Shown here: one piece after another, positions 13,906-36,850 of the stretch
Layout of the letters: every line of letters begins with the position of its first letter
Position numbering within the stretch: position 1 is the stretch's first letter
Assembly: GCA_016699975.1 (NCBI GenBank)
Contig: CP064994.1
Span: forward strand, 848,311-912,310
From: Candidatus Moraniibacteriota bacterium
GTDB lineage: Bacteria > Patescibacteriota > Minisyncoccia > Moranbacterales > UBA1568
Reading direction: 5' to 3'
DNA: 64,000 bases
The notes under the pieces: model-generated
What the model was told of the DNA's origin: nothing
The model's input: only the letters and a program-made list of their open reading frames with translations
Databases searched by the model: none
Made by a program: the position numbers and the translations under genes

Positions 13906-14005
13906 TTAAAATTCAAAAAGAAAAATGAGGAATTTCGATACTGAGAAAAAGTAAAGATCCAAACCCCTTACTGCGACACAGTTTCCTTCTTTTCACCAGA
14001 GGGGA

Positions 14006-15553: not shown

Positions 15554-15651
15554 AGCGTTGTCGTGGTACCAACGTCCGGTTTCCTGAAAAAAGAAACCAA
15601 GACTCCCACAAAGTAAAAAAAGAAAATACTTTGGACACAACCCCTCAGAAT

Positions 15652-16074
15652 CTACCCTTCAACTTTAATACCCATGGAGCGAGCGGTACCCGCGACAATA
15701 TTCATAGCCGCATCGACGTCGTTGGCATTCAAGTCCACCATTTTCATTTCCGCAATTTCACGAAGCTGTGCAGAACTGAGTGATCCTACCTTGTCTTTGA
15801 GGGGATTCGCAGCCCCCTTCGCAGCTTTTGCAGCCTTTTTGAGGAGTTCCGCAGCGGGTGGCGTCTTTAATACAAAGGTGAAAGTACGATCTTCAAACAC
15901 AGTGATTTCGGCCGGAATGATATCGCCCATTTTCTCCTTGGTCGCCTCATTGAACTTTACGCAGAAGTCCTGAATATTGAGACCGTGTTGCCCCAGTGCG
16001 GGACCAACAGGCGGTGCCGGATTGGCTTTTCCTCCAGGAATTTGCAACTTGATAACGGTTTTAATCTTTGCCAT
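15652..16074 (-). CDS. rplK: 50S ribosomal protein L11
   Basis: [46 protein letters not shown] is canonical L11. Confidence 0.9.
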
Positions 16075-16147
16075 AAGTGTCTCTAGAGATTACTGAATGG
16101 AAAGCTCGCCACTCTTTCGGCGCCTCCTCCCATTCTTGCGGACATAT

Positions 16148-16693
16148 CTATACCTTCTTAATCTGCAAAAAGTCGAGTTCGACGGGCGTCTCGCGACCAA
16201 AAAGCGAAACCAAAACTTTTACCTTTCCTTTCGCTTCGTCAAGTTCGTCTACACGGCCATCGAAATTCTTGAATGGGCCGTCAACGATTTTGACTGGATC
16301 TCCTTTTCGAACATCGATTTTGAACTTCGGCTCTTCGACTCCCATGCGCTTTTTGAGCATCTCTATCTCTTTAGGGTCAACTGGAGTTGGTGTGGTACCA
16401 AGACCAATAAATCCCGTCACATTGGGCGTATTACGAACCACATACCAGGACGCGTCGGTGACGATCATATCAACCAAAATATATCCGGGATAAATGCGCT
16501 CTTCCACCATCACGCGCTTCCCGTTTTTCATGTTGATTTTTTTCTCTTTGGGAACCATGACGTCGAAGATGAAGTCCTGCATTCCCATCGATTCGATACG
16601 CTGTGTGAGATTTCGAGAAACATTGTCTTCATAGCCAGAGTAGGTGTGAAGCACATACCATGATCGGCCATGATGTTGCGTTTGCTTTGCCAT
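16148..16693 (-). CDS. nusG: Transcription termination/antitermination factor NusG
   Basis: NGN domain (WYVLHTYSGYEDNV...) plus a C-terminal KOW domain (GDPVKIVDGPFKNFDGRVDELD). Start is the ATG at 16693, inside the longer ORF given in the track. Confidence 0.85.
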   Translation of the reverse strand: MAKQTQHHGRSWYVLHTYSGYEDNVSRNLTQRIESMGMQDFIFDVMVPKEKKINMKNGKRVMVEERIYPGYILVDMIVTDASWYVVRNTPNVTGFIGLGTTPTPVDPKEIEMLKKRMGVEEPKFKIDVRKGDPVKIVDGPFKNFDGRVDELDEAKGKVKVLVSLFGRETPVELDFLQIKKV

Positions 16694-16821
16694 AAAAAAA
16701 GAGAAACGGATGTCGAAAAAAAATCTTGTGATCAGAAAGAATCGCGAGCCTGAGAAAAACGGAAGGTTGTTTTCCACTCTCAATCGCTCTTTCCCAAAAC
16801 AAGCGCTGGCAATTTTTGTCA

Positions 16822-17010
16822 CTATTCCCCAAGAATAATCTTCTTGAAAAGCATGCCGAAAAACGAATCGAGCGTTCCCAAGAGAACAGCAACCGCCGCC
16901 GAAACACTGAGTACAATGAGTGTATATCGCACCACCTGTTCTCGCGAGGGCCACGTGATTTTGAGCGCCTCCCCTTTTGCAAGGAGGAGAAATGAAAAGA
17001 GGGATTTCAT
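16822..17010 (-). CDS. secE: Preprotein translocase subunit SecE
   Basis: 62-aa protein with MKSLFSFLLLAKGEALKITWPSREQVVRYTLIVLSVSAAVAVLLG (KVxWP motif plus a single TM). Located upstream of nusG. Confidence 0.7.
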   Translation of the reverse strand: MKSLFSFLLLAKGEALKITWPSREQVVRYTLIVLSVSAAVAVLLGTLDSFFGMLFKKIILGE

Positions 17011-17144
17011 AAATTTCGGCTTTTTTAAAGAGCCCTTGGGGCTCTTTCTGCTTCCACCATACGCGAAACGACACAAGCTGTCAACCTGACATTTCTCACA
17101 AAATAATTTGATTCCTCTCCATTTTCAAATCACAGAGAAAAAGC

Positions 17145-17185
17145 CGAGCCTCCCCAAAAGAAGAAACTCGGCTTCTGATAGTCCT
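17145..17185 (-). terminator. Rho-independent terminator downstream of cysteine-rich gene copy 2 (GCCGAG...CTCGGC stem, T-run on the minus strand)
   Basis: Hairpin AGCCGAGCC-loop-CTCGGCT followed by TTTTTCTC on the minus-strand transcript. Confidence 0.45.
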
Positions 17186-17237
17186 CCCCACCACTCCCCT
17201 CTTCCAGAGACGATTCTCACGAGGCAGGGCTCACTTA

Positions 17238-18743
17238 CTACGGAGCAACCTCGGTCCAGTTATCAGCACACTCTTTGGTCCCTCCAAAGCAGGCATTCGC
17301 ACGTCCGCAGGTATCGGTCCACTTTTCATTGGGGCAGTGATTTTCTCCGGTACATGTACAGACTTCACACCGAGAGCCGTTCCACTCACCGACGCCGCAA
17401 TGAAATTCGCATTTTCGAGGAGTATTCGTTTCTGAGTACTGCCAGGACAAGGGGCCCTGACAAACCAGTATTGTCTCCTTCGAAGGAAACGGCGGACGGT
17501 GGGACGGATCCGCTACACTTTGGTGTTTCTGCGATTATCTGAACAGAGCTCATGATGAAACCCGCGCCATTCGACTGGGCACATCGAATTCCATAGGTAT
17601 ATGTCCCGGGAGCAAGGTTCCCCGTGGGGACTCCCGCTCTGTTCTGAGCTAAGCCGCCGCTTGTCCAAGACGCGTATCCCATGCCATCTATGGCATAGCA
17701 ACCCGAAACGTTTGTAGAAGTCCACACAAGATTGGCTGACGAATAAGCAGGTATCGTAATGGAGTATCCTCTTGTCGGTCTCCCTTGGGGACTCTCTGCA
17801 AGAAAGGCGACGCTTCCATTTTGTACCGGTGGTGGTGGAGGAGTTCCGCGCACACAAGAGTTTCCACTAAAAGTAAAGCCGGCACGACAGGCGATGCAAT
17901 AACTTCCGCTCCCCCCACTACAATCCCAGTCCCATCCCGACCATTCTCCTCCAGTAAACAATGCGAAAGGATTTCCTCCCGGCTCTGTCCCAGCATGACC
18001 GCTCGCCGTTCCACTGGAACACAGTGTAAACCCATCTACTTCCGGACCTCGCTGCGTTGGCATCACTTGACCGTGAGCCGTGCCACAGGCTCCATTTGTC
18101 GGTCCTCCTCCACAATTTTTGGCACCTTCCACATTATTGCATCCGTTCCAACACTGTTGTCCGATACAAGTATTGCTCGCGCAATTATTACTTGGCGTGC
18201 AGCCGCCTGGTGGAGGTGTACCCGGACCAGACGGTGGATCTTCCACGCTGCGCTCCATGCATCGATAAACATTTTTCGCCACTCATTTTGTCCTTTTCGC
18301 TCACAATTACAGGTAACCGTCAATCCTTCAGAACAAACGCTTCCCGGGGCCGGGCAATTCTGCCGATAGTTCGGGTCATACGGTGTTCCCGGGCCACACT
18401 CGCGATTACCCTGCCTCACCCATTCTCCACACTCCGCGCAGGGCTCGCAATGTGCAACGCCTCGGAACCTTCCATCCTGCTGGCATGCACCACATTGTCG
18501 CTCGCGACCAGAATTCTTACAATACGTTCCCGTGCTTGGGCAGGTGAGGAGAGGGTTGGCACTCGCTGAGCACGAGCCTCCGGGAGCAGACACTCGCCAT
18601 TTTCCGGTTGCGGCTTGCGCTGATTCTGGAGAGAGCAATGCAAAACCCACTCCAAAAACAAGTGCGAGAGCCCCAAGGAAAATATTTTGCTTCCATGCTT
18701 TCCGAGAAATGAAAGATATATTCATACGATTCGAGATCGACAC
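17238..18743 (-). CDS. Cysteine-rich secreted protein of ~560 aa, copy 2 (broken into 3 frames at positions different from copy 1)
   Basis: ORFs 18063..18743, 17386..18282 and 17238..17450. Frame breaks lie at a T5/T6 run (~18275) and at GGGGCCC versus GGGTCC (~17455). Confidence 0.5.
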
Positions 18744-18806
18744 TTAAAATTCAAAAAAGAAAAATGAGGAATTTCGATACTGAGAAAAAGTAAAGATCCA
18801 AACCCC

Positions 18807-19299
18807 TTACTGCGACACAGTTTCCTTCTTTTCACCAGAGGGGATCACTGCATCGCCGTAGACATATTCTTTTGAAGAAGCATTCTCGAAGTGAAGGATC
18901 GTGACAAACACTCCACTACGAAGCTCGTCGAATCCTTCTGTGGATTCCTGTACGTAAAAAAGAGACTCAACTGAAGAGGATGCCTTCTCAGCATTACTCT
19001 CGGGAGCCGAGACGAGTTTCACCCAGACTCCATCGGCATCGTCTTTGGTTATCATTTCTCGAACGAAGCCGGAAGTTGATTGCATGTTTTTCTCTACCTC
19101 CTTCGAAAGATTCTCCGGGATACTTTTCTCGCTCTTTGGTCCAGGAGCGTTCGAGATCATATCTTTTCCTTCGGGATTGTTCTCGCCCACAAAACGAACG
19201 GAGCGCCAAAAAAACCATCGCCACCATGACGATAATGAGGAGGAAGAGCGCCCAAAAAAGAAGCGGGCTGCTTGAACGGGAAGGGAGAGGTTGCGACAT
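18807..19299 (-). CDS. Small membrane-anchored protein, copy 2 (frame differs from copy 1 because of A5/A6 and A3/A4 run differences)
   Basis: ORFs 18994..19299 and 18807..19364 together correspond to 14006..14458. Confidence 0.4.
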
Positions 19300-19552
19300 A
19301 GCGTTTTTGTTTTAGAGCTGAGGAGCACAAAAAAAGAGACTTTTGGTCTCAGTATACCATACACGCTTTAAAACGAGCGCGCTCTTGTCAAGACTTCCCT
19401 CTCCCGAGCGAGGAGGGTAGAATCGAAATACGGCTCGTCTTTCTCTAAAAAAGAAAAATGTGGCTGAATATGAAGATTCCCATCTCTTTCGAGTTCCGTT
19501 TTTTCGTTTTTGACTCTCTGTAAGACTTCATGCAATTCCGATTGATCCTCCT

Positions 19553-22500
19553 ATGCCCTTCGCTCACCTTCACGTTCACTCGCACTACAGTCTTCTGACC
19601 GCTCCCGCGAAAATTGATGCACTTCTTGATCGCGCGAAGGCACTCGGTATGGAGGCGCTCGCGCTCACAGATTACAGCGCGCTCTATGGTGCGGTCGAGC
19701 TTTCGGTTAAAGCGAAAGAGCGCGGCATGAAAGCAATTATCGGTGCCGAAATATATGTCGCGAAAGACATGAGGAGTCGCACTTCGAACGAAGACCGTCG
19801 GCGCTACAACCTCGTACTCTTGGCCGAAAATGAAGTCGGCTATAAGAATCTCATGAAGATTATTTCCGCCTCGCATCTCGAAGGCTTCTACTACAAACCC
19901 CGCGCCGACAAAGCGCTCTTGCGAACGTATCGCGAAGGACTCATTGCCCTTTCAGGATCCGTAACGGGCGAAGTGCCTTCGCTCATCATTGCAGGAAGTG
20001 ACGAGCGCGCGACGAAAGCGGCCCGGGAATACGAATCAATTTTCGGAGCAGGAAACTTTTTCTTGGAACTTCAGCCGCACCGCGACTACGAAAACCAGCT
20101 CCTCGCGAACGCGGGACTCGTGCGAATATCACAGGAAACCGGCATTCCGCTCGTTGCTGCAAACGATGTCCATTATGTGCACCCTGAAGAAGCCGAGCTT
20201 CAGGATATTCTGCTGTGTATTCAAAACAACTGGAAAGTTTCGGACGAAAATCGTCTCTCCCTTCGGCACCTCGACCTCTCCCTTCGAAGTCCAGAAGAGA
20301 TGCGCGCGTTTTTTGAAGACGTGCCGGACGCGTTCGAGAATGCAGCTCGTATTGCCGATCGCTGCGACGTGCATATCAAACTCGGGGAAACACAACTTCC
20401 CCACTTCGATGTGCCTGAGGGAAAAACCGCAGAAGTATATCTGCGCGAACTCTGTGAACAAGGCCTCGTGAAGCGCTTTGGCGACCGCGCGGGAGAGACG
20501 CACCGAGCGCGCATGGAATACGAATTGGGCGTCATCGAAAAAACTGGTTTCGCTTCGTACTTCTTGATCGTGCAGGACTTCGTAAACTGGGCGAAAAATA
20601 AAGGCATCGTGGTCGGCCCGGGTCGCGGAAGCGCCGCCGGCAGCTTCGTTGCGTACCTCACGGGCATTACGAACATGGATCCAATCGAGTATCGCTTGCT
20701 CTTCGAGCGATTTCTTAATCCGGAACGCATCTCAATGCCCGATGTCGATATGGATTTTTCCGACGACCGTCGCGACGACGTACTCAACTACGTTCGAGAA
20801 AAATACGGTCACGACCATGTCGCCCAAATCATCACTTTCGGAACCATGGCAGCGCGCGCCGCGATTCGCGATGCGGGTCGAGCGCTCGGATTTTCCTATG
20901 GTCTCTGCGACTCGGTCGCGAAACTCATTCCGCAGTTCCACACAATAGAGAAGGCACTCGCCGAAGCGCCGGACTTCAAGGCATTCACCGAGAAAAATCC
21001 CGATGCAAAACGCCTCGTCGATGTCGCCAAAAAGATCGAAGGGCTCGCGCGACACGCATCAATGCATGCCTGCGGCGTCGTTATCACCAAAGATCCCGTC
21101 ACCGAATACACACCCATCCAGAATATTTCTGGTTCCAAAGAAGGTATCGTGACACAGTACTCGTCGTCTACCAAGTCGAGTTACATCGAAAAAATCGGCC
21201 TCCTCAAAATGGATTTTCTCGGACTCAAAAACCTCACGATTATCCAAGACACCATCAAGATTCTCAAAGCGCTCGGAAAATTCGATGAGCTCGGACAGAA
21301 AATCGGACTCGATCCCAATTCTGCAACGACCGCCGAAATTATCGATCACCTCCCCCTCGACGACGCCGATACCTTTGCGCTCCTTCAGAAAGCAAGAACG
21401 ACCGGTGTCTTCCAGCTCGAATCAAACGGCATGAAGCGATACCTCAAACAACTTCGCCCGAGCGCGCTCGAAGATATCATCGCCATGGTCGCCCTCTACC
21501 GACCTGGTCCCATGGAATATATTCCCGACTTCATCGCCGGAAAACACGGTCAAAAAACAGTCGAGTATCTCCACCCGAAACTCGAACCCATTTTGGGAAC
21601 GACCTACGGCGTCGCAATCTACCAAGAACAAGTGATGCAGATCGTTCGCGACCTCGCGGGCTTTACCTTGGGCGAGGCGGATATTCTGCGAAAAGCGGTG
21701 GGAAAGAAAATTTTCGAACTCATTCGGGAGCAAAAAATAAAATTCGTAGAGGGCTGTGAGAAACAAGGCATTTCCAAATCAATCGGTGAAAAAGTATTCG
21801 CGTTCATCGAGCCGTTCGCGGGATACGGATTCAATCGCTCGCACGCCGCCTGCTATGCCCTGATCGGCTATCAAACCGCTTACCTCAAAGCCCACTACCC
21901 TGCCGAATTTATGGCAGCCCTTCTCACGAGTGATCAAAGCAATTCCGATCGTGTCTCGATCGAGGTCGCCGAAGCGCGTGACATCGGCATCGAAGTTTTG
22001 CCACCTTCCGTCAACGAAAGTTTCGAAGCGTTCGCCGTGATTCGCGGAGAAGATGGGATCGAGCGCATTCGCTTCGGTCTCAATGCCGTCAAAAATGTAG
22101 GAACGACCGTCGCCGAAGAAATCGTCCGCGAACGAAAAGCCAACGGTCCATTTCAAAACCTCACCGACTTTATCGAACGCGTTCGCGGAAAAGACCTAAA
22201 CAAAAAATCGATCGAAGCGCTCTCCAAGGTGGGCGCGCTCGACTCGTTCGGCGAACGAAAGAGTCTTCTTTCGAGTATCGATACCATTCTCCTCTACGCC
22301 AAAAACAGCGAAAAGGCCAAATCGACCCATTCCGTCAGTCTTTTTCGAGACATGCCGATCGAAACGAGCGAGATTCGGATTGCTCCGGTCCCGGAAGCTA
22401 CCAAGCGCGAGAAACTTCAGTGGGAAAAGGAATTGCTCGGCCTCTATGTGAGCGATCATCCAGCAAGCGACTATGAAGCATACCTCGCCCACGTGGCACT

Positions 22501-23089
22501 CCCTATTCATGAAGTCGAAAAACACCCCGAAGGCGCCTCGACTCAGGTAGGCGGTGTCATCTCCGCGCTTCGCAAGGCCTACACCAAAGATCAAAAAACG
22601 ATGTACTTTGCTACGATCGAAGACACTACTGGCCGCATCGAAGCGGTCGTCTTTCCGCGCGTCGCCGAACAAACGGAGTCGCTCTGGGTCGAAGAAGCCA
22701 TGGTAATCGCCGGCGGAAAAATTTCCCTGCGCGACGGCTCGCCCAAAATCATGGTGGAGCGCGCCGAACGCCTCTCTCCAGCATCAGTCGAGACCTGGAA
22801 ACGAGTTGCTCTCACCCGAAAAAAACATGAGGGAATTTCCAAAGCAGTACCTCCTCAAACAGAAGACTCGAAACCATCCGCTTCTTCGATTACGGTCAGC
22901 CTTCCCGACACAGCAACCGAAACAGATATCGAAATGCTCGCAACTTTACTTCGTTCGCTCTCTCCGGGAGACACACGCGTTTTCATTGAGCTTCGCAGCC
23001 ACGTCATTCGAACAGCATTCACGATTGCCTCCGATAGAGAAACGCTCGATCGTCTCCGCGCCTCAAGCCCAATGAGAGAAATACGATAA
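19553..23089 (+). CDS. dnaE: DNA polymerase III alpha subunit DnaE
   Basis: 1178 aa with a PHP domain ([11 protein letters not shown]), a polymerase core ([15 protein letters not shown]...), an HhH region and an OB domain. Confidence 0.9.
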
Positions 23090-23096: not shown

Positions 23097-24083
23097 TTGA
23101 TGGAAAAAAATGCTCTCCCCATTTCCACGGAGAAAACCAAGCTCCTCGCGATAGCAGGGCCGACCGCGTCCGGAAAATCGTCGCTTGCGATACGTATCGC
23201 CCGAGAAGAACACGGCGAAATCATCTCAGTCGACAGTCGACAAGTCTACCGCGGCATGGACATTGGTACCGGCAAAGTAGAGCAAGACGAGTCACCACAC
23301 GACGTCTTTTTTCCGAGGGCATTCGCCACCATCTTATCGATATCGTGAATCCCGAAGAGGAGTACAACATCTCGCATTTTTTGAAAGATGCGACAGAAAT
23401 CACGATGGAAATCGAGAAGAGAGGAGTGCTACCCCTCCTCTGTGGCGGAACCGGTTTCTGGATGGAGACGTTTCTCGACGAGGCGCCCATTTCTTCGGTT
23501 CCACCCGATCCTACCCTTCGAGCCGAACTTTCGAAAACACCGGCCGAAGATCTGTTCACGCTTCTCACCACTCTCGATCCAAATCGGGCAAAACAAATAG
23601 ATCGGCACAATCCGCATCGCCTCATTCGAGCAATCGAAATCGCTCGTGCCAAAACGGCTGGGCCCCACACGGCCGAACCCCCAACAAACGCGGCGAACAT
23701 ATCACACACCTTCGACATCTGCATCATCGCACTTTGCCCGCCCAAAGAAAATCTCGACGAAAAAAATAAGGGCACGTCTCGACGAACGCTTGTCGTGCGG
23801 CATGGTCGAGGAAGTGCAGACGCTCCACGAACACGGCATTTCCTGGGAACGATTCGAGTCGTTCGGACTCGAGTATCGTCGCATTGCAGAATTTCTCGAA
23901 GGGAAGCACTCTTTCGAAGAAATGAAAATGCGTCTCACCTTCGACATTCTTCATTATGCGAAGCGTCAACGGACGTGGCTACAAAGATGGCACCGCCGAC
24001 ATCCCATTCTCCACTTCGTCGAAACGACAGAAGCGGCAATCGAAGAAGTGCACCTCTTTCTTCATGGCGCCCCCAAAAAGTAA
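23097..24083 (+). CDS. miaA: tRNA dimethylallyltransferase MiaA, interrupted by two 1-nt homopolymer indels
   Basis: P-loop [14 protein letters not shown], ...HHLIDIV..., LCGGTGFW and a C-terminal helical region lie in three consecutive frames. The breaks fall in the T6 run at ~23305 and the A7 run at ~23762. Confidence 0.75.
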
Positions 24084-24105
24084 AAAGCCCGGAACCGCTG
24101 TTCCG
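24020..24105 (+). repeat. 86-bp direct repeat, copy A (miaA 3' end plus stop plus hairpin). Copy B lies at 26997..27082.
   Basis: 83 of 86 positions are identical to 26997..27082. Confidence 0.85.
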
Positions 24106-24406
24106 TATAATGGTCTGACAAATTCGACACCCCCATTTGTTGTTGTCGTATGAAAAAATCTACACCCCCAGCAGAAAGCATGGATGGCGCTTTCCGCCCT
24201 CCGAGGAGAACCGCTCTCCACACTTGGCAGTCTCCACCAGATTCATCCGAACCAAATTGGCAAATGGAGAAGGATATTGGAAGAATCCGCAGAACAACTC
24301 TTCTCCGATAAAAGGAAAAAAGAAAACCACGAAAAGTTCGCACAACTCGCATCCCAACACTCGCACCCCGATGTATCGGGGAGCGGGCGGGCGGGTTTCC
24401 ACCTAA

Positions 24407-26380
24407 CTATTGTCCGGCGCCTTGAATTTGCCAGTAAAAGTTTGTGCAGCTTGTGTCCCTGCAACCACAGCGCCAAGAGCCGCCCTGCACACTGCAGGTC
24501 ATCCCGACAAGATAGGTGGGAGACGCAGCACTTGCGGTTGAAACATTCGGATCGGTGATCGTCGCGGAGACGGGTCCTTGGCACCACTCGCCATTCAACA
24601 CTCCGGTACACGTACCGGTATATTGTCGCCATCCCGCCGTGACGGCATCGTACCAATAGCCTTTGGTGTAGACGATTCTCGTGGTGTCTCCCGTTATGCC
24701 GGTCGTGAGATTCACCGTGTCGGTGTCGGCGCTATTGCACCGGACATTCATCAGGTTCGTGCTCGTTTGAAACGCGTCGAATGGAGCGCCGTAAGAGTTG
24801 TAGGTGGCTTGGGAGAAGTTGGTGGTGGTGACGGTGTTGCAGGAAGTAGTCGTTGCGGATTCCCCGTTCAAGTATCGTTCAAGATTGGAGTAGCCACTCG
24901 TATGAATTGTCGGTCCATCGGAGGCATTGTTCGGGTTCAGACCTTTGACTGTCTCCCACTGATCGGGCATACCGTCGTGGTCGGTGTCGGTGCAGGCAGT
25001 GCCGGGGTCGATAACGGGAAAGCCGCCGACGCTATCTTCATTGACATAATAATTGCCCTGTAAGTTATGGTATTCACTAATAACTCTTCTATCTACCGTA
25101 TCGCGGTTTTCTACCCAGTTACCCATACAGTCGAGCCTATGTGAAGCGCCTACCGTAGGCAATACCTTGTTGTCGAGCTCGGCAGCGGATTGGGCTGTAA
25201 TCGGATATGGAAGCGTGGGAAGTGGTGTGGCGCGGCGATATTGGGCGGGAAGTACCCCTATCAGTTTGGCGGGTGTTTCCCACTCGTCAACTATGCCTTC
25301 ACTGGTCACTTCCCAGATCATTCCCCAGTCGTCGTTGGCGGGAGTCGGGTTGTGATAGCCGATATTGCCAGATGAGAATATGGACGGCGGACCAAGAGGC
25401 GTATCGGGCCCCGGTGTCGGACATACGTAAATTTCGTAGGGGATACGTCCCTGCCTCAGCGGACCAGCCTTATAGTAATTTCCAATAACGTCCAGATTAA
25501 CGCCGCCGATGAGTGCGGTGGCTGAAAATTTCCAATTGTAGATAATGTTATTTACCAGCCGGAAACTCTTGTTTTTTATCAACGGATTGCGATGGGTAGT
25601 GTTGGCCATGAAACTATGATGAATATCAATATTAGTCATATTTTCGGAAGCATTGTTGCCGGAACCCGTTAAAAATCCCTTCGAAAAATTGCTTTCATTG
25701 ACCAACATCAGCGGTTCGTACATCATTAACCATGAATAGGTAAGATTGTTTTGTGGCGCTCCCCACGAGCTCGCGTTTTCATCCGTTCCCCACGACAGAG
25801 ATACATGATCGTAAATCGAACTGGATGCAGCGGTACTTGAAGCAATATTGTCTCCTTCCGAATAACCCGTATAGCCATGGCGTATACGGATATACCGGAG
25901 TATAACATCGTGGGTATAGTTGGTGATGCAATTTCCTTGAACAAAATTTTTCCCCGAGATGGTAATGCCGCCGCCGGGAGCGGTTTGTCCAGCAATCGTG
26001 AGATACGGATTCCTAATTTCCAAACCTTTTTGACCACCCGATATATTGCAATTGATAATACCCGCCACCCTAAATACAATTGTTCGCGGTCCGGTCATCT
26101 CTACCCCTGCCCGCAGACTCCCCGGTCCCGAGTCATTGAGGTTGGTCACCTCATAAACAATGCCTCCGCGCCCGCCGACCGATTCCGCTCCGCCACCCTC
26201 GGCTCCGGGAAACGCGGGGATCGCCTGCGCATTCGCTGATGCAGAAGGAAGGAGGCTTGTTATGCAAAGGATAGACCACAAAAGAACGGGAGGAACGACA
26301 CTACCACCTGTTTGTCTGCATTCGTTCATACCGATGCCCGAAGGCGCTCTTCGCGCAGTGTTCTCCGAAGCTAAACGCAT
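24407..26380 (-). CDS. Secreted right-handed beta-helix protein, pectate lyase (PL1)-like, with a DxDxDG calcium-type motif and a C-terminal Cys-containing domain
   Basis: NIDIHHSF...HRNPLIKNKSFRLVNNIIYN matches the PL1 vWIDH/RxPxxR/NN.Y block. The DTDHDGMPDQWE motif and a signal-peptide-like N-terminus are present. Confidence 0.6.
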   Translation of the reverse strand: MRLASENTARRAPSGIGMNECRQTGGSVVPPVLLWSILCITSLLPSASANAQAIPAFPGAEGGGAESVGGRGGIVYEVTNLNDSGPGSLRAGVEMTGPRTIVFRVAGIINCNISGGQKGLEIRNPYLTIAGQTAPGGGITISGKNFVQGNCITNYTHDVILRYIRIRHGYTGYSEGDNIASSTAASSSIYDHVSLSWGTDENASSWGAPQNNLTYSWLMMYEPLMLVNESNFSKGFLTGSGNNASENMTNIDIHHSFMANTTHRNPLIKNKSFRLVNNIIYNWKFSATALIGGVNLDVIGNYYKAGPLRQGRIPYEIYVCPTPGPDTPLGPPSIFSSGNIGYHNPTPANDDWGMIWEVTSEGIVDEWETPAKLIGVLPAQYRRATPLPTLPYPITAQSAAELDNKVLPTVGASHRLDCMGNWVENRDTVDRRVISEYHNLQGNYYVNEDSVGGFPVIDPGTACTDTDHDGMPDQWETVKGLNPNNASDGPTIHTSGYSNLERYLNGESATTTSCNTVTTTNFSQATYNSYGAPFDAFQTSTNLMNVRCNSADTDTVNLTTGITGDTTRIVYTKGYWYDAVTAGWRQYTGTCTGVLNGEWCQGPVSATITDPNVSTASAASPTYLVGMTCSVQGGSWRCGCRDTSCTNFYWQIQGAGQ

Positions 26381-26606
26381 AAGAGGAGTCTTTGGGGAAA
26401 TAATACAATATTACGCGTTGTATTGGAAATGCGTGTGAATCTTGCCTTCTTCCTTCAAATAGGGTGCTATTCGTCTATGAATATCGACGAAACAGCGCGG
26501 GGGAATTTTGTGTTTCCCAATCCCAAGACGACCGATCCGAGTAAACTGGTCTTGCTTTCCTAGACAACGCTATTCGTTTTTAAAGGTAGATTAAAACCGT
26601 CAAACT

Positions 26607-26990
26607 TCACTGAAAGAATATCACGCTACTTTCTCTTTGAGAAATACACTTCCGCCGGTGTCCGATACTCGATCGATTGATGCAATCTCCGCTCGTTGTA
26701 AAACGGAAAATACTGATCGAGTCCTTCTTTCGCTTCCTTAAGAGTTCCGTATTCATGAAGATATACATCCTCGTAACTTCACCGTTCGTCAGAGCCGTTC
26801 GGTAAAGATATTGTCCATGCATCGTCCCCGTCCGTCCATGCTGATCAGAATGTTGTTTTCTTGGAGAGTCCCGACATATTCCTCGCTCGTATACTGCACT
26901 CCCTGATCGGAATTGTGCATTTCCGGTTCTCCCTTTTCCAAGGCATCATTGGGTGTTTCCGTACAGAATCTTGTTTCCAAACTCGGAGAA
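26607..26990 (-). pseudogene. IS3-family transposase (integrase core, rve domain) C-terminal remnant with multiple frame breaks
   Basis: The minus-strand translation gives ...EMHNSDQGVQYTSEEYVGTLQENNILISMDGRGRCMDNIFTERL... and then ...YEDVYLHEYGTLKEAKEGLDQYF..., which are typical IS3 OrfB C-terminal motifs. Confidence 0.6.
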
Positions 26991-26996
26991 AGTTTC

Positions 26997-27082
26997 CACG
27001 AAACGATAGAAGCGGCAATCGAAGAAGCACACCTCTTTCTTCATGGCGCCCCCAAAAAGTAAAAAGCCCGGAACCGCTGTTC
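26997..27082 (+). repeat. 86-bp direct repeat, copy B (with a complete 9-bp stem hairpin GCCCGGAAC/GTTCCGGGC)
   Basis: Matches 24020..24105. Confidence 0.85.
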
Positions 27083-27117
27083 CGGGCAGAAAATACAATA
27101 TTCAAAATGCAAATTAC

Positions 27118-27854
27118 TCAAAGCTCCTGCCTCTTCATCAAACAAGATCTCCTTACAAAATTTCCCTGAAGCTCTTGTAACCTTCCAAAAATTTGCCGGA
27201 CCTCCTCAACGCTCGGAGGATTTTGAAAGGCTCTCGAAAAGTGTGCCTGAATATTGCAAATCCCTGCAGAACAGCAGGTCATTCCATATTCACCTGCAAT
27301 ACTCCGCAGTTCTGGAAACTGACAGCAACGCCCTTCCCTCCTATCGGCAGGACAAAAATCTCCTAAAGGAGAAAGGATCTGTTGCGAATGAGAAGTTAGG
27401 ATTTGTATTGAAGTTCCCATAAACGTGCCTCCTCAAACATATGAAATGGAATAGTCACAATACCCACAAACTCGCGAATTCTCGGAAGCATACTCCACAC
27501 TCTCTCACGCGAAATCTGAGGAAAGAGACACTCCTCAGTTGTTGAAAGTTTGATAAATTCCCAGAGAGAAAAATCCTTTCCATCGATCCCAAGCCCCGGG
27601 TATGTCTTTCGTATCCAATTCACCCATTTGCTGAAAGGCTCTATGGTAATGCCAACAATCTCATCGCTTTCCGCCAAAAGCGCTGAGAAGTACCACCCAA
27701 AAGACTCGTGTACACAAGGGCAATCTCGGGTTTTATAACTGAGAGTATCCATTCCCTCCTGCCACAAAATATGCGGCTTAAATTCCGGGAATTCAAGTGG
27801 GACATGTTTTTCACCACCAGACAAAACGAGGAGCAGTTCATGAAAATCAGTCAT
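27118..27854 (-). CDS. Hypothetical protein with a Cys-rich C-terminal part (CPADRREGRCCQF...MTCCSAGICN). Two overlapping ORFs suggest one gene with a frame break near 27400.
   Basis: ORFs 27396..27854 and 27118..27420 overlap by 25 nt in different frames. No recognisable family. Confidence 0.3.
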
Positions 27855-28253
27855 ACACTCACCTTGGGTTTCCCCACAAATATATGTTGTTAAGATACAA
27901 AAAATCCGCCACAGAGGCGGATTTCACGCTTTCAAAATATGAGAAATTTTTTTGTTCTTTGATCTCATTGATTCCTATTATTGCTTGAATGGTTTTCTGT
28001 GTCAACAGAAATAACTCAAACAAACTTTCCTTATCAAGGGAGAGAGAAAAAGGGGCCACTGAGACTGAGCATTTAACTGATGGGGCATGCTTCGCCTGTG
28101 GCGTTCATTGTCACGGGTTCTCAAGTATGAAATCAATCATGAAACACTTTCTCAAAGCTCCTTTCAGCGCACGATGTGTTTTGAACTGAAGCTCCAAAGC
28201 ACAGATTCAATATTTCCTGTTGGGGAGAGGCCATGTACGGTTTCGTTATTTCT

Positions 28254-28793
28254 TCACGATGCGTATTCATTCATTTTTTCCATGAGTAACTTCTGTAAAT
28301 CGTCAAATCCCATCTGTAATGTGTGAGAAGAAATACACAGGGGTGAACCATAGTTTTTGTAATTCATTTTCATGACATTTCTTTTGAACGGGTTTGCTAC
28401 TTTGTCCAAGTAGTCTTGTGGGTTTCTCACGATGATCATTAAAAGATCCTGATTCATAACCTTCGATATTCTAATTTCTTGAATATCTGTCCAGGGAATG
28501 AGCCCGACTGATATACCGCTTGAGTTGTCTGTAATGCCCTGCCTGCTGAGCACGAGCCCTGGTTTCTTATCTGAAAATTTGCGAAAGAGTATTCCTGCAA
28601 CCAGTCCAAAAAATATCACTGATACCAGTCCCGCCACAAAAATCACTGTCCGGTTTCCAAAAAGCCAGTGATTCGTTGTCGGTGGATGTACGAGAAACCA
28701 AAGTCCCAGCGCCACAAATACAAGAGAGCCGAGAAAGGCCAAGATCAGTTTCGTCCTACTCAATGGAATTTCAATTCGTTCTTCTCTGGTCAT
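28254..28793 (-). CDS. Membrane protein with two N-terminal TM helices and a PH-like C-terminal domain (resembles the STM3941/bacterial PH domain family)
   Basis: Two hydrophobic helices (LILAFLGSLVFVALGLWFLV; VIFVAGLVSVIFFGLVAGILF) are followed by ...GLVLSRQGITDNSSGISVGLIPWTDIQEIRISK. Confidence 0.4.
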   Translation of the reverse strand: MTREERIEIPLSRTKLILAFLGSLVFVALGLWFLVHPPTTNHWLFGNRTVIFVAGLVSVIFFGLVAGILFRKFSDKKPGLVLSRQGITDNSSGISVGLIPWTDIQEIRISKVMNQDLLMIIVRNPQDYLDKVANPFKRNVMKMNYKNYGSPLCISSHTLQMGFDDLQKLLMEKMNEYAS

Positions 28794-28939
28794 ATTGATT
28801 CATGTTTATCTTCTCACTTCTTTCCGTGTCGCTCTCGAGCGCAACCTCACTCTCTACGGCTTTACAGGAGCTGATGATATAAAATACATACACTTAAATT
28901 GAATTGAATACAATTTAATTTATTTTGCATCTTACTCAT

Positions 28940-29516
28940 TTAGAGAGAAAGTGACTTTAAATCTTTCAAAAGACTTTTAACAAGAGACTGCAAAATCCTT
29001 TTTTCCTCCTCATTCAAATTTATTCTTTCTGATTTTACAAGTTCCTCCTTTAAATCCTTGAATCTCTCTTGAGATATATCGGAAGCAGACAGGATATCAG
29101 AGATACTCTTTCTTAAAATCTGCTGCGCTTCTAGAGGAATATCATCAGAAAAACTCTTTACTCCTTCCGCAACAATAATTGGCAACCCTTTCAGGCAGGC
29201 GTATGCCATCTCCGTTCCTGCACTGTGTCCCACATATCCGTCAACGTTAGCCACATACAAAAAATCAGCCCTGCGTATCTCTCGCATGAAATTCATTTCG
29301 AGCCTGTGGGGGGGGCGTACTCGGGTCATCCGTCGCAAGAAGAACAAATTCTTCATTTGGGTCAAGAATTTCTTTGGTTGTTGGGGAAAGAACTTTTATG
29401 CCAGCCTTTTCAAAATTTTCAATGGCCTCTCCAATTTTCTCCATGTGCTTACGAAAACTTCCAGAGACAACGGTTTCCGGGATTTTGACTGCATGTGGTT
29501 TTCTTTCGAAATTCAT
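28940..29516 (-). CDS. Nucleoside 2-deoxyribosyltransferase-like protein, frame broken at a G8 run (~29306-29316)
   Basis: ADFLYVANVDGYVGHSAGTEMAYACLKGLPII matches the NDT-family core (AD.V.AN.DG...GT..E.G.A...GKP.I). The N-terminal part (ORF 29265..29516) and C-terminal part (ORF 28940..29365) are in different frames. Confidence 0.5.
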
Positions 29517-29760
29517 AATAACAAAAAATTTTTTACACCGAGAGTAAAATAAGATTTCTCAATAAATCAACGATACAATTTATTTCTTCATCAAATCTTT
29601 TATTGCATCTTCAACTCCACCAATTGTCAAGTCATGCATTGAAATAATTTTACTCACTGCTTGAATTGTACCAGAGTCATCTCGACCTTTCCATTCTTTC
29701 TGAAAAACTGGACTTATCCAAATGATTCGTTCATCAGCAGGTAAACAATTTGATTCATAG

Positions 29761-29967
29761 CTATTTCAAGAGTTCGTTAACTGGAACGTCCAACGCATTG
29801 GCAAGGTTAGTAATAGTCGAAAGAGTTGGATTTGTTTTCCCGTTCTCGATGTTGCTAACAAAAGACCTGTTGACTGCTAATTTCTTAGCAATCTCAATTT
29901 GGGTAACACCTTTCTTTGTTCTGATCTTCTTGAGATTTTCCCCAAGCTTTTTCGAGTAGTCTTCCAT
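29761..29967 (-). CDS. XRE-family helix-turn-helix transcriptional regulator (68 aa)
   Basis: LKKIRTKKGVTQIEIAKKLAVNRSFVSNIENGKTNPTLSTITNLANAL is a canonical HTH_XRE. Confidence 0.7.
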   Translation of the reverse strand: MEDYSKKLGENLKKIRTKKGVTQIEIAKKLAVNRSFVSNIENGKTNPTLSTITNLANALDVPVNELLK

Positions 29968-30242
29968 AAAAAGAGTATATCACATTTGTTGTATTTTACT
30001 ACAACAAGACAATGCTTAACAAATGTAACCAAAGCATACAGAATGACTAAAAACCGGCTCACTGTTATGCAATAAATTACTAGTTTTACATAGACTTAGC
30101 AAAAACAGCTATCTGCGTCATCAATTAATATATGGAACCCTATACCACAGCCAGAATCAGCGATGAAGATGATTCTCTGTAGTCAGGCAAAACTGGAAAA
30201 TGACAACAAGTATTAATGTAAAACGAGGGCTACGAACGAGAG

Positions 30243-31080
30243 TTGAAATGGGATTGTGGCCAGGTCCGCCCCCAACTGAATAGATATATGAAAGAGAAGC
30301 GAATGGATCGAAAATGCGAAACTCTTATTGATCCAGAACGAGCACCAATGATAAAAAAGATGTGTGAAACAGTAGCCTATGAACATTGGAGCGGGAGAAA
30401 AATCTACAACTGGCTCAAATTTGATCTGAACTTCAAAAGTGGCACCAGAAAGAGAAACTTAAGCCTCGGCAATATCTACAGGCTCCTCGATAATACCTTC
30501 TACTATGGAGTATTCTAATATCCAAGAAAATCAGGAAACTGGTACACAGGGAAACACAAACCGAGCATTACCAAAGAGCTTTTTGATCTCGTACAAAGTC
30601 AGATAAAAAGCCAAATTCTACGGGTTGAAGGGAAAGAGTTCGCTTTCACGAAAATAATGACTTGCAGACTCTGCGGATCAGGTATAAGTGCCGACGAAAA
30701 GTTCAAAAAGAAAAGAAGTGGCGGAGTTCACCGATAGGTCTCCTACGGCTGTACCAAAGCTAGAGGGACCGATTGTAAGTGTGGCTATACCGAAAAAAAA
30801 GAAATCCTAAAACATTTTGAAGAACTGATAGACAAGATAAGTCTCAATGAGATCGAGGTAAAGGAAAAATAAAAGCAGATATTGATCAGTTTTCCAAAAT
30901 GCAAAAGTTCTTTCTCGGAACAAAAGAAAAAATCAGTATTCCCAGTGTTGATATTCGAGGATATGCCAAATATATCCTCGAAGAAGGTGCGAACGAAGAG
31001 AAGTGAGAAATACTGGGTTGTCTCAAAAGCAGGATCTATCTTGCAGAGAAGAAAATAACTTTGGATAAATAAATAGACAA
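30243..31080 (+). pseudogene. Large serine recombinase remnant (recombinase domain, zinc ribbon and coiled-coil region) with several frame breaks and stops. It has no catalytic N-terminal domain.
   Basis: ...KIYNWLKFDLNFKSGTRKRNLSLGNIYRLLDNTFYYGVF is followed, in shifted frames, by ...CRLCGSGISADEKFKKKRSGGV..YGC.KA..TDCKCGY. The second serine recombinase gene at 39285 has similar motifs. Confidence 0.55.
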
Positions 31081-31089
31081 TCATAAAAG

Positions 31090-31118
31090 TAAAAAGCACG
31101 GATTTTCCGTGCTTTTTA
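31090..31118. terminator. Bidirectional hairpin (AAAAAGCACGGA-TTT-TCCGTGCTTTTT) with T/A runs on both sides
   Basis: 7-bp stem flanked by an A5 run and a T5 run. Confidence 0.4.
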
Positions 31119-31169
31119 CTTTGTAACCGACCAATGTTGCAGGTAAGCGTGTCGTGCTACCTGCTGTTG

Positions 31170-31360
31170 GCGGTGAGATTTTGCGCTTTGCGCGAACTTT
31201 TTTCGAGCAAAGCACCAAATAAGGAAGCCGTCCCCGCCGTTGCGCTCCGCCCACTGGCGGATCGCTGTATCCAGAGAGAAGTTTCTTTACGATTTCGGAT
31301 TTTGCGCGCGGTTTTTTTCTCTCAAAAATGGAAAAGAAATCTTCTCTCTGGATACTCTGC
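31170..31360. repeat. Inverted repeat IR-A (left copy, ~190 bp). Its inverted partner lies at 38945..39133.
   Basis: The reverse complement of 31170..31360 matches 38945..39133 with only a few indels. The unit contains internal hairpins (GTATCCAGAGAGAAG...CTTCTCTCTGGATAC; CCGCCAGTGGGCGG). Confidence 0.85.
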
Positions 31361-31669
31361 TTTGGCAAGCAGAACGGCGGGAACGGCTGCTGTTGGTACG
31401 CCGCAGAGATAGAAATAAATGAGCTTGTGGTTATATTCTATCACATCAGGAAATATTTTGTTCACTCATTTCTCCATCTTTGCGGCGGAGCCATATCTAC
31501 AGTTTTCGGTAGTTCATTTGTTTGTGACTCCGGTTAAGCTGGTGCCAACCCATAATATGGATTGTGCTAGAGCACAATCAAATTTAATTGTGCTTGCCCC
31601 ACCCACCCGTGCGCGCACATCTGCTCGCAAAGGATAAAAGGGTTGCGAGCAAGACTCCCTTTTCATTCC

Positions 31670-33059
31670 CTATACTGAAGCCTTACTATGCTTGCTAATC
31701 TTTATTTGGGGAGTAATACCTAATTCCGAGCATTTTCTTGCCCAGGATTCAATTTTTTGTTTCAAGATTATAGAATTTATTTCAGAGATTTTAGTTGGCA
31801 ATTTTTTGTTTTCTATGCCAATCCAAAGACAGTAAACCCGGAAAGACTGATCCAGCTTTTTAGTATTCGCTTTCTTACTTATAAGTTCAAGTGTATTATT
31901 TGCCTGGTCACAAACATATCCTAGCTTTTGTGCAGTGCCAAATTTTACAGCATACACGGTATCCTCCTTCTTTACATCCCATGCCTCAATAGGCGTGCCC
32001 GATTTAACCTTAATTTTTGAAAAATCTTTATCCGCGATACTGTACCCGTGTTTCTTCAACTCTATATTAAAATCACTTTCTATTCCCATAATTTCAATCA
32101 AATCATCCTCTACTTTCTCTAGTTCTATGGTATCAATATACTCATTGAGTTGATCCAAATAATCTTCGTTAAATCTCATCCATTTACCTTGTGACAAAAT
32201 AACATTTTGACCATCAACGATATAATCAATTGATTCCTTGAGCGTCCGCGAGAACTCATTTGCATCTTCTTTTTTTACTTTAATCTTAATACTAAGTATT
32301 TGATCATCAGGAATCGAATGTTCTGATATAAATCCATTAAGCTGCTCAATCGAAAGCTCATCTAGCTCATTTGAAAAATTTCCTCCCCAATGAAATACAT
32401 ACTTTTCTTGTCCAGAAAATATGAAATCTACACCGACAAGGTCGTGGCTATTTGCGGTAAAGTCTGCACCGTCTTTGATTCCTTTTATTTCTTTGAGAAG
32501 CTTTTCTTCATAAGAAATGACTTCGGGAAGTCCATCTATAATCATCGTTCTGGGGAGCGCGAAAAGTTCTTTTGATTCAGCTAATCTAGTCAATTTATCA
32601 AGAAAATCCTCAAGGTCCTCTTTCTCAATTTCTGGATTAAGATTTACGGATGATCCGAATTTACCAGTTTTGCCGAAGTCAGCTTTTTGCTCTTCCAATA
32701 TAGATGCTTGCAAATAGTCAACGGATTCCCCACTTTCTATATCAAGCTTTGTATGTTTTGTATAGCTTCTTATTTCTTTTTTCTTCTTGCCAGCAAACTT
32801 TTTTGTAGATTTTTGACGAACATCCTGTTTATCAACAGCACGTTTTGCAATTTCTGTTCCAAAATCATGATCGCAGTGTTGCCGAAGATAAAAATGACTC
32901 TTCCCGTAACTAATAACGAAGCAATATTTGTCATTTTCCCAAAGATAAGCTGCAAAATAAATTAAATTCTTTGGCTTATTACCAGAAAAAAATTCCTCAT
33001 ATTCTTCCACCCACGGGATTTGTTTTGAGTTAATATCTTTTGAAAAATAGAAGCTATAT
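31670..33059 (-). CDS. Unknown protein, C-terminal ~462 codons of a ~505-aa gene interrupted by an IS630 element. It is the last gene of the R-M operon.
   Basis: ORF 31670..33073. Its first 5 codons are encoded by the IS terminal inverted repeat. The upstream exon is at 34140..34265. The protein is K/E-rich with no recognised domain. Confidence 0.45.
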
Positions 33060-34138
33060 CCCCCGCAAAACAAAATAGGGGATCTGGTATATTGGATTCA
33101 TGCCCGCAAAAACAAAAACTGAACTCTCCCCCGAAGAGAAAGATTTGCTCAAAGCGTATCTCAAAACATCCCCGCTCATTCTCGTTCGCCTGAAATGCCA
33201 TGCGATTCTTACGAGAGAAAAAGGAATGCCTCTGAAAGACATCGCCGATATTGTTTCGAGACACGAAAATACTATCGGTGTATGGATGAAGAACTGGGAA
33301 AAACAACGCATGGCGAGTATCTTCACCGGACATGAGGGAATCAGAACGCAAGTAAACTCACAGAAGAACAAAAGAAGAAATCAGAGAAGCCCTCGAAAAC
33401 CACCAAGTGAATACACTCTTCCAAAAACCTTTTGGGATGTCCCCGCCCTCAAAACATATGTTCAAGCGATATTTGGAGTCGTATTTGAATCCGTTCGTTC
33501 ATATCACTTCCTCCTTTCTTTTTGCAATCTGAGTTTCAAGTATCCCGATACCTTCGATCTTCACCGGAATGAAACTCATATTGTCGAAAGAATGGTTGAA
33601 ATACAGACAGAAATCAGCCCCTTCTCAAGGATGATTCGTGGGAAGTGTTTGCTTCCGATGAAGTGCGAATGGAATTGGAAGCTCTCACCAGAAAAGCGTG
33701 GCTCAAGAAAGGAGAACGGACGATCGTGCACGTGAATCGAAAGCGAGAAGCGCAAGTTATCTCGATTGCTCAATCAAAAAACTTTCGATGCCATCTTTAT
33801 GAAGTTCCCTGGCAAAACCAAGAAGAAATACTCAAAGCGTTGGAACAATTTCTGAAAGAGTATCCTGATAAAAATCTGTATCGTATGGGACAATGCGCGA
33901 TTTCCAGGGAAGGGGAATACGAAAAGCCCTCCGTAAAGGAGGACTTCTCGAGAGAGTGCATCTCATCAACTTGCCGCCATGCCCCCGATCATAATCCGAT
34001 TGAGCAGTGTGGAATACGGCGAAAGGGATGATGGCAAACACCCAATATGAAAGTTTTGAAAAAATGAAGATGGTGTTTTTCACGTATGTGAATGGACGAG
34101 CGTTTGAGTATCGAATCTAAGATTTTGTTTTGCGGGGG
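33060..34138 (+). mobile_element. IS630/Tc1-mariner family insertion sequence (~1.08 kb) with 17-bp terminal inverted repeats CCCCCGCAAAACAAAAT and TA-type flanks
   Basis: The left TIR is at 33060..33076. Its reverse complement is at 34122..34138. Flanks are ...TATAT| and |ATATAG. Confidence 0.75.
33100..34031 (+). pseudogene. IS630-family transposase (HTH plus DDE domain), frame break near 33650
   Basis: N-terminal HTH (LKCHAILTREKGMPLKDIADIV) and a C-terminal ...APDHNPIEQ motif (the YSPDLNPIE box) occupy two overlapping frames (ORFs 33100..33735 and 33645..34031). Confidence 0.65.
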
Positions 34139-34139
34139 A

Positions 34140-34265
34140 TATAGTTTTCCATTTTCCGTGCACAGAAGAGTGAATAACTTCGAGTCCCACAGACTCAAGC
34201 TTCAATTTCAAATCTAAAACACTGTCTTTTGGAATTTTGAAGATATTCAACTTCATAATGGTCAC
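34140..34265 (-). CDS. 5' exon (42 codons) of the IS630-disrupted unknown gene. Its start overlaps the methyltransferase stop (ATGA).
   Basis: MTIMKLNIFKIPKDSVLDLKLKLESVGLEVIHSSVHGKWKTI, after which the ORF runs into the IS TIR. Confidence 0.4.
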
Positions 34266-36848: not shown

Positions 36849-36850
36849 AA

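Follow-up and report, generated by a model that had tools for sequence, protein, structure and literature searches.

A strain-variable islet with a PL1-like lyase gene at the 3' end of miaA in a Candidatus Moraniibacteriota bacterium

Results

Two copies of the miaA 3' end enclose a decayed islet

The miaA gene of a Candidatus Moraniibacteriota bacterium, an ultra-small member of the candidate phyla radiation (CPR) from activated sludge, is followed by a strain-variable islet of 2.98 kb that lies between two direct repeats of the gene's 3' end. The islet is a decayed mosaic in which truncated ends of IS3-family insertion sequences (IS) and remnants of two genes surround one intact gene, predicted to encode a secreted polysaccharide lyase (PL) of family PL1. 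We lean towards an origin by homology-anchored recombination over the 86–91 bp of miaA 3' homology, through which an IS3-bounded fragment from a related strain would have arrived with the PL1 lyase gene as its cargo. All positions are coordinates of the window, the whole 64-kb stretch of DNA that was analysed.

The direct repeat consists of copy A (24015–24105, plus strand) and copy B (26994–27084, plus strand), which are 91 nt long, 95% identical and spaced 2979 nt apart. All five mismatches fall within the first 36 nt, and the last 55 nt (24051–24105 and 27030–27084) are identical; this 55-mer core occurs exactly twice in the window, where shuffling (100 shuffles) gives an expectation of 0. 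An earlier sequence-only reading of this DNA had described 86-bp direct repeats at 24020–24105 and 26997–27082. The repeat itself stands, and the coordinates of the B copy needed a shift of 2 nt, to 26999–27084. The attL-like copy A holds the last 22 codons of miaA, the stop codon (24081–24083) and a hairpin reduced to a 6-bp stem, and carries the allele GTC..ACA..GTG. The attR-like copy B is a miaA 3' segment with the allele CAC..ATA..GCA and is continuous with a full 9-bp hairpin (27066–27087) and the DNA downstream. The codon differences between the copies are whole-codon and non-synonymous (V/H, T/I and V/A), the pattern that would be expected between two functional miaA alleles. As the earlier reading had noticed, copy B has the fuller stem, with a computed hairpin energy of –18.2 kcal/mol compared to –8.6 kcal/mol for the 6-bp stem of copy A. 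A T-run accompanies the hairpin on the minus strand only, so that it is terminator-like there and not on the miaA strand; the hairpin would therefore serve to terminate transcription of the convergent minus-strand genes (27854–27118). After the duplication, a weaker copy of it also lies downstream of the minus-strand lyase gene.

Filled and empty alleles are both present in public data

The proposal that DNA was inserted at the miaA 3' end is supported by an empty site from another sample. A Logan unitig (L093, from SRR32934939) joins window positions 23782–24105 directly to 27085–28025 and has a single copy of the repeated segment, from which it follows that the insert varies between strains. 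The junction of the empty site reads ...GGTTCCG|GGCAG, and the IS3 left-end sequence at 24106–24322 is absent from it. The 267 nt of miaA just upstream of the repeat are identical between the window and the empty-site strain, which differs by 1.5% downstream. Three allele patterns can be compared: GTC-ACA-GCA in the empty site, GTC-ACA-GTG in copy A and CAC-ATA-GCA in copy B.

The filled site is likewise represented in independent short-read data. One Logan unitig (L001, from SRR11674037) equals window positions 24076–27059 exactly and contains the insert with both of its junctions with the repeat, while two others (L091 from SRR11674037 and L092 from SRR15021097) both begin at 27055. The unitigs break exactly at the 55-nt core, where breaks would be expected at k=31 for a repeated core. 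Unitig L001 holds the diverged 36-nt arm of copy B fused to the IS3 fragment; a second copy of the miaA 3' end thus physically exists, and an artefact from an identical repeat is unlikely. Genomes of GTDB species were uninformative as an empty-site comparison, as the nearest relatives with sequence context have 55–60% dnaE identity and are rearranged downstream of miaA. A homologue search with the C-terminus of MiaA yielded no usable further alleles of the site. A 39-mer from the core had no match in JGI metagenome contigs or in IMG/VR, and no attP, other context or other element at the site was found.

The islet is assembled from IS3 ends and gene remnants

Read from left to right, the islet begins with an IS3-family left end (24106–24322, plus strand), which comprises a putative terminal inverted repeat that begins with TATAATGGTCT and a putative, decayed 5' part of orfA and is truncated in its interior at about 24322. 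After frameshift repair, the orfA peptide matches HTH_Tnp_1 weakly (E=0.0012, 19.5 bits against a cut-off of 24.1). It is followed by a 3' stub of a paralogous lyase-family gene (24323–24378, minus strand) with the codons ...GCECWDASCANFSW, located 28 nt downstream of the lyase stop codon; positions 24327–24366 of this stub are 87.5% identical to the 3' coding end in the relative L008. The intact gene for the secreted PL1-like lyase (24407–26380, minus strand) is an open reading frame (ORF) of 657 aa, with M17 (26332) as the likely start. Beyond it, a divergent membrane-protein gene is represented by its first 37 codons (26429–26541, plus strand) and is then cut by the right IS3 end. In the relatives L008 and L009 this gene runs on without interruption, and a paralogue with 78% identity lies at 58516–59886 (minus strand) of the window. 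Homology to these two relatives stops exactly at 26541, where the IS3 terminus TAAACTGGTCT starts.

The right end of the islet (26542–26998, minus strand) is an inverted IS3-family end whose terminus TAAACTGGTCT at 26542 abuts the cargo and which retains the C-terminal third of orfB (rve). When repaired, the orfB fragment matches the NCBIfam model transpos_IS3 (NF033516) over positions 248–368 of 369 (E=2.4e-36) and rve_3 (E=4.4e-15), in both cases as a fragment only, and it is 56.6% identical to transposases of the ISPpu29 family. It is broken by one in-frame TGA and one +1 frameshift. The sequence-only reading was right about this frame-broken transposase fragment and missed the second IS3 fragment, the 3' gene stub and the truncated divergent gene.

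The two edges of the insert differ in kind. The left junction is the IS3 terminus itself, inside the miaA hairpin. The junction with copy B (26994–26998) lies inside IS3 orfB, with an overlap of at most 5 nt (TTCCA). The termini TATAATGGTCT and TAAACTGGTCT align from base 1 and are identical at 10 of the first 14 bases; 56 of 2000 shuffles score equally well. Their outer flanks, ...TTCCG| and ...CCGAG|, do not match, and both IS3 copies are truncated. No gene for a recombinase, an integrase, an excisionase or an element backbone was detected in 24106–26993 by inspection of the ORF list or by Pfam and NCBIfam scans.

The intact gene is predicted to encode a PL1-type lyase

The 657-aa ORF on the strand opposite to miaA has a signal peptide, in line with the earlier description of a secreted beta-helix protein. 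Behind the signal peptide, its layout comprises a beta-helix catalytic core (aa ~54–506) that ends in a TSP3-like DTDHDGMPDQWE motif, and a 152-aa Cys-rich beta-sandwich module (24407–24865). The match to the Pfam pectate lyase family PF00544 reaches 17.9 bits, below the 24-bit cut-off. The best NCBIfam match is PelZ, a member of PL1 subfamily 2 (PL1_2), at E=1.8e-40 and 139 bits, which is below the equivalog cut-off of 840 bits. A profile built from 44 homologues and compared with the PDB matches 9BUJ (PfPL1, PL1_2) over nearly the full catalytic region at E=6.5e-48, followed by VexL at 5.7e-20 and the classical PL1 pectate lyases (PelC-type) at 1e-10 to 1e-5. The 9BUJ entry is the first structure of a PL1 subfamily-2 enzyme (PMC11229556). 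An AlphaFold2 (AF2) model has a predicted local distance difference test (pLDDT) score of 80 overall and above 90 through the helix core. A Foldseek search with this model again returns 9BUJ as the best match (template modelling (TM) score 0.79, E=1.7e-18), then VexL and then 20 further PL1-fold structures. All 22 best PDB matches have the PL1 fold and comprise lyases and the homologous pollen allergen Jun a 1. Because the Pfam match is below threshold on its own, the PL1 assignment rests on the profile-to-PDB comparison and on the fold.

An R-x-P motif formed by R264 and P266 is invariant in the 44 homologues. R264 aligns with R232 of VexL, the proposed catalytic base, whose mutation inactivates VexL (PMC6003464). 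Leu267 occupies the position of VexL R235, the second arginine of the motif, and Lys269 (+5) has the spacing of PelC R223. The assignment of the catalytic arginine is limited to the mapping on VexL, since the residue numbering in the PfPL1 paper could not be matched to the HMMER alignment. Catalysis by PL1_2 enzymes and by VexL has been described or proposed as metal-independent (PMC11229556, PMC6003464). By profile and modelled fold, the protein is a PL1 lyase of subfamily-2-like type with a conserved catalytic arginine. Its expected reaction is the beta-elimination of an acidic polysaccharide that contains uronates, in which Arg264 would act as the base. To judge from its sequence, the gene looks expressed, and the C-terminal beta-sandwich module probably binds a glycan or a cell surface.

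A tailspike or an adhesin was considered and rejected: a signal peptide is present at the N-terminus, no tailspike structure matches better than E>0.009 or with a TM score above 0.25, and the PHROG match is in the moron category and not in the tail category. The proposed PL1-type payload is thereby upheld over the non-lyase beta-helix proteins, adhesin or tailspike, that the first reading had named as a possible refutation.

The first reading was mistaken in regarding a lyase as unexpected in a minimal genome. PL genes are present in 80 of 135 CPR metagenome-assembled genomes (MAGs) from activated sludge (PMC10031880), and a second copy of the lyase occurs in the same genome (P0005, IPL87_03215). 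In relatives (L010 1611–6288, L008 and L009), tandem lyase paralogues lie between a Mur ligase gene and murB. These tandem paralogues have near-identical signal peptides and C-terminal modules around catalytic cores that are 30–50% identical, which suggests, at the level of sequence, a cassette-like swapping of catalytic cores within the CPR lyase family.

The lyase core is shared with a high-GC phage

The closest homologue of the lyase outside the CPR family is P0002, a protein of 1026 aa from a lambda-like phage, which starts with a signal-peptide-like segment. Its gene is an insert in the phage head module, between the major capsid gene and the head–tail connector. The phage is found in at least 24 contigs (JGI, the European Nucleotide Archive (ENA), Logan and an NCBI Competibacteraceae bin) and also in IMG/VR, and its terminase is ~48% identical to terminases of Ralstonia prophages. 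A block of the lyase gene (window 24980–26221, minus strand) recurs in the middle of the P0002 gene (L002 11402–12643; also L003–L007 and L095) with 99.2% identity, that is, 10 differences in 1242 nt. Beyond this block the next 108 nt are 77% identical, and then similarity ends. The shared block is identical in six phage contigs. Both the window lyase and P0002 match PHROG 27797, a "pectate lyase" moron family, at E ~1e-50.

The base composition of the block suggests a direction for the transfer. The phage has 63% GC overall, and the shared block has 49% GC with 50% GC at third codon positions (GC3), compared to 66% GC and 76–79% GC3 in its phage flanks. The block has 49% GC in both genomes and fits the CPR surroundings. 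A block of 49% GC inside phage flanks of 66% GC points to a recent transfer of CPR-like DNA into the phage. On the simplest reading, CPR-like DNA would very recently have replaced the core of a lyase domain that the phage already had; alternatively, a common third donor with ~50% GC may have supplied both. A further-reaching scenario, which we put forward tentatively and consider improbable as a whole, is that the 1.24-kb block records a direct and very recent flow of DNA from a CPR epibiont to a phage or prophage of its 63%-GC, Competibacteraceae-binned host. The lyase core would then be a host-surface tool for both parties, and the islet would spread this core between CPR strains. If this were true, epibiont and phage would both cut the capsule or exopolysaccharide (EPS) of the host with the same catalytic core, and an uncultured CPR lineage could be paired with its host by sequence.

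The miaA gene and the surroundings of the islet

The miaA gene (23097–24083, plus strand), which encodes tRNA dimethylallyltransferase and is recognized by Pfam IPT/IPPT matches on three ORF pieces, is located downstream of dnaE (19553–23089). The dnaE gene has 64% identity to that of a Moranbacteria MAG, 86% to a short contig in a bin labelled Saccharibacteria and 50–60% to other Patescibacteria MAGs. The miaA frame is split in three by two single-base losses (–1) in homopolymers, T6 at 23307–23312 and A7 at 23760–23766. The NCBI annotation of the region contains only a 257-aa hypothetical protein (IPL87_04495, Candidatus Moraniibacteriota bacterium, on a contig of 1,048,819 bp), and no intact MiaA of more than 55% identity was present in the protein collection searched. 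Look-ups of the exact protein sequences of DnaE and of the N-terminal miaA ORF had no matching record. The gene is either a real pseudogene or bears residual long-read consensus errors. Elsewhere in the window, homopolymer indels account for almost all differences between the two copies of a 2.53-kb repeat, the pattern typical of consensus errors from long reads. The unique DNA that surrounds and includes the insert (5.6 kb) has no indel compared with the short-read unitigs that cover 24076–27059 and 27055–29722.

The 2.53-kb direct repeat itself (12344–14875 and 17183–19718) is 99.4% identical, and its right copy extends 165 nt into dnaE. Its copies flank nusG-rplK-rplA (14876–17182) in a repeat–unique–repeat (R-U-R) shape like that of the miaA islet. 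The two copies may in truth be identical, with differences due to consensus errors; alternatively, the duplication itself may have arisen during assembly.

A low-GC (34–43%) island (27085–39300) follows directly after copy B of the miaA repeat and carries an XRE regulator, a serine-recombinase fragment (30243–30518), DUF6119, an AlwI-type restriction enzyme with an N6/N4 methylase, and a RadC-Dam fusion. In another population (unitig L091), everything beyond 29722 is replaced by a 4-kb AAA_5 (McrB-like) module, and the stretch from miaA to tRNA-Ser is therefore hypervariable. Inverted repeats at 31167–31347 and 38956–39136 (93% identical) bracket a 7.6-kb restriction–modification segment, and a second pair at 39126–39260 and 40673–40807 (99%) brackets a large serine recombinase gene (39530–40852). 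The encoded recombinase is CcrB/XisF-like with no N-terminal resolvase domain detected, and its gene overlaps tRNA-Ser(GCT). Both bracketed segments may be invertible or mobile modules. Further along the window, a low-GC stretch contains direct duplications of ~1 kb (46802–47780 and 48267–49235, 87–100% identical), and another direct duplication of 142 nt (51201–51342 and 51784–51925) is 99% identical. The ORF for leucyl-tRNA synthetase (61711–63915, minus strand) has an unusual architecture, with a NUDIX domain (aa 81–197) between the match to the editing domain and the matches to the catalytic and anticodon-binding domains; this ORF may extend past the end of the window.

Discussion

The anatomy of the islet and the alleles of its flanking repeats together suggest a sequence of events. 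The donor would have been the chromosome of a related Moraniibacteriota strain and the incoming DNA a decayed, IS3-bounded fragment of it. In the donor lineage, one IS3 would have landed in the miaA terminator hairpin, which would explain why the right edge of the repeat is fixed at 24105/27084, and a second, inverted IS3 would have landed in the membrane-protein gene beside the lyase gene. Subsequent deletions would have left just two IS ends and the lyase. From there, two routes into the chromosome can be envisaged. The fragment may have been circularized and then integrated through a single reciprocal exchange within the homologous miaA 3' segment (Campbell-type insertion), or linear DNA may have been joined by one homologous end and one illegitimate join, known as homology-facilitated illegitimate recombination (HFIR). 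Either route would leave the 3' end of miaA duplicated as direct repeats, preserve the reading frame of the gene and place one junction inside IS3 orfB. HFIR has been defined in naturally transformable bacteria (PMC3240628), and CPR bacteria have competence machinery for DNA uptake (PMC12455944). Homology-anchored recombination is favoured by the allele patterns of the empty site, copy A and copy B, which fit a single reciprocal crossover: one exchange between repeat positions 14 and 35, involving a resident allele like that of the empty site and an incoming CAC-ATA-GTG allele, reproduces both copies without any extra mutation.

Several points weigh against this interpretation. The mapping of the crossover is suggestive only, as a single empty-site allele is known and the three haplotypes do not violate the four-gamete test. 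A crossover of the RecA type would be expected in the 55-nt identical stretch and not in a 20-nt interval between mismatches, which leans slightly the other way. The crossover in the 20-nt interval therefore leaves room for a fixed-site recombinase acting in trans, or for patching by mismatch repair. Neither the donor locus, with miaA followed by IS3, nor a circular form was found, and the core had no counterpart in JGI metagenomes or IMG/VR. Finally, the integrated arrangement rests on the deposited assembly, as the short-read unitigs cannot phase the 55-nt repeat and hence cannot tell it from an empty chromosome plus a circle.

Two simpler origins from IS3 activity do not account for the repeats. 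IS3 elements generate target duplications of 3–5 bp. A repeat of 86–91 bp is far longer than this and is therefore not an IS3 target-site duplication, and one of its junctions lies inside orfB. A single IS3 split by an inversion is also rejected, as the flanks ...TTCCG| and ...CCGAG| lack the reverse-complementary relation that a common target duplication would give. For the same reasons, the transposition-mediated capture offered by the sequence-only reading is not sustained: the duplication is too long, and the copy B junction lies inside orfB and not at an IS end. Its other proposal, site-specific integration, finds no support in the content of the insert, which consists of IS3 fragments, gene stubs and a lyase and holds no recombinase.

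The most serious rival to homology-anchored recombination is a broader form of that last proposal, a decayed but true integrative element. In this scenario a tyrosine recombinase, since deleted or provided in trans, would have recombined an attB in miaA with an attP that imitates the 3' end of this gene. Direct repeats over a gene's 3' end that restore the reading frame and stop codon are what such an element would leave, as is the single-copy empty site, and the alleles fit a crossover at a defined point in the 20-nt interval better than one in the longer 55-nt identical stretch. The adjoining region at 27.1–40.9 kb is moreover a low-GC, strain-variable island with serine-recombinase genes, which marks the locus as an integration hot spot. 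These recombinases are however of the serine type, and to our knowledge serine recombinases do not create long repeats. In addition, the 2.9 kb hold no integrase, excisionase or other element gene and consist of stubs of chromosomal genes and ends of IS3. On the attP side, the arm would need to consist of internal IS3 orfB sequence joined to a piece of miaA, a combination that looks fortuitous, and no second element at this site was found in JGI metagenomes or IMG/VR. We found no description of miaA as an attachment site in a literature search. Taken together, we judge an integrative element to be unlikely, while conceding it a real share of the probability.

Somewhat less credible is a composite transposon, in which two inverted IS3 copies around the lyase gene entered the miaA terminator as a unit. 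Slipped or illegitimate recombination at the site would later have given rise to the 86-bp duplication and the truncations, after which the two copies would have diverged by drift. The termini TATAATGGTCT and TAAACTGGTCT are indeed similar, the left junction is a clean IS terminus within the hairpin, and the left outer and right inner IS ends are intact, as in a Tn10-like inverted IS arrangement. Treating the five mismatches of the repeat as three events leaves their clustering with only weak significance (about 0.06 on our own calculation). Yet the 3–5 bp duplication of IS3 is not seen in the flanks ...TTCCG| and ...CCGAG|, and no simple step in place gives an 86-bp duplication beside the interior of orfB. 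Drift would have to alter three codons by five bases within ~170 nt while the 267 nt of miaA upstream remained unchanged relative to the empty-site strain. It would also have to leave copy B with GCA in common with the empty site and copy A with GTC-ACA in common with it. An assembly artefact, in which the real chromosome lacks the insert and the 2,979-bp segment, from a separate circle or from elsewhere, was joined in via the 55-nt core, draws on short-read unitigs that end in the core and cannot phase it and on signs of long-read consensus error (the 2.53-kb repeat copies and homopolymer indels), but is very improbable given the diverged 36-nt miaA arm joined to IS3 within the single unitig L001, the matches of 24076–27059 and 27055–29722 to short-read unitigs without indels, a deposited contig of 1.05 Mb that presumably derives from reads spanning 3 kb, and the poor prospects of persistence for a 3-kb circle with no replication gene.

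As an insertion the islet is ordinary; the core shared with a phage and the core-swapping lyase family are of specialist interest. The islet offers a small worked example of gene-content turnover in a streamlined CPR genome: it is recombinase-free, its anchor is the end of a housekeeping gene, and its filled and empty alleles are both available in public data. In the lyase family, the signal peptide and the C-terminal beta-sandwich module are nearly constant and the catalytic cores appear to be swapped, and one of these cores seems to have passed, very recently and with hardly any change, to a phage whose host is an unrelated high-GC bacterium. If the link to the phage reflects a physical association, it would give an uncultured Moraniibacteriota lineage of activated sludge a host link that can be tested, and would provide a candidate enzyme for the surface interaction between epibiont and host.

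The arrangement can be compared with several known systems. Some prophages and islands, such as e14 and phage 21 in icd, use the 3' end of a protein gene as their integration site and bring a replacement for that end with them. The miaA islet shares with them the near-identical direct repeats of a gene's 3' end that flank the insert, the intact reading frame and a single-copy empty site in other strains; it differs in having no integrase, excisionase or element backbone and in a cargo of chromosomal stubs and IS3 ends. Campbell-type insertion and HFIR likewise resemble the islet: neither needs a recombinase encoded by the element, and both add short linear or circularized foreign DNA beside an anchor, with one homologous junction and one illegitimate junction that has an overlap of a few bases. 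In contrast to these, the islet has an anchor of just 86–91 bp, the anchor end is duplicated and not replaced, and the islet is known from its product alone. The phage morons of PHROG 27797 resemble the lyase in the family match of both proteins and in that the phage copy also has a signal peptide, whereas the lyase gene of the window lies on a CPR chromosome and has CPR-specific N- and C-terminal parts, and the shared block looks as if it had passed from CPR to phage and not in the opposite direction. At the level of the protein, the nearest likeness is to the PL1_2 enzymes (PfPL1, 9BUJ, and PelZ) and to VexL (PDB 6FI2), with which the lyase shares the parallel beta-helix, the R-x-P motif with its catalytic arginine, secretion by a signal peptide and a C-terminal helical region that ends in a Ca-binding D-x-D-x-D-G motif.

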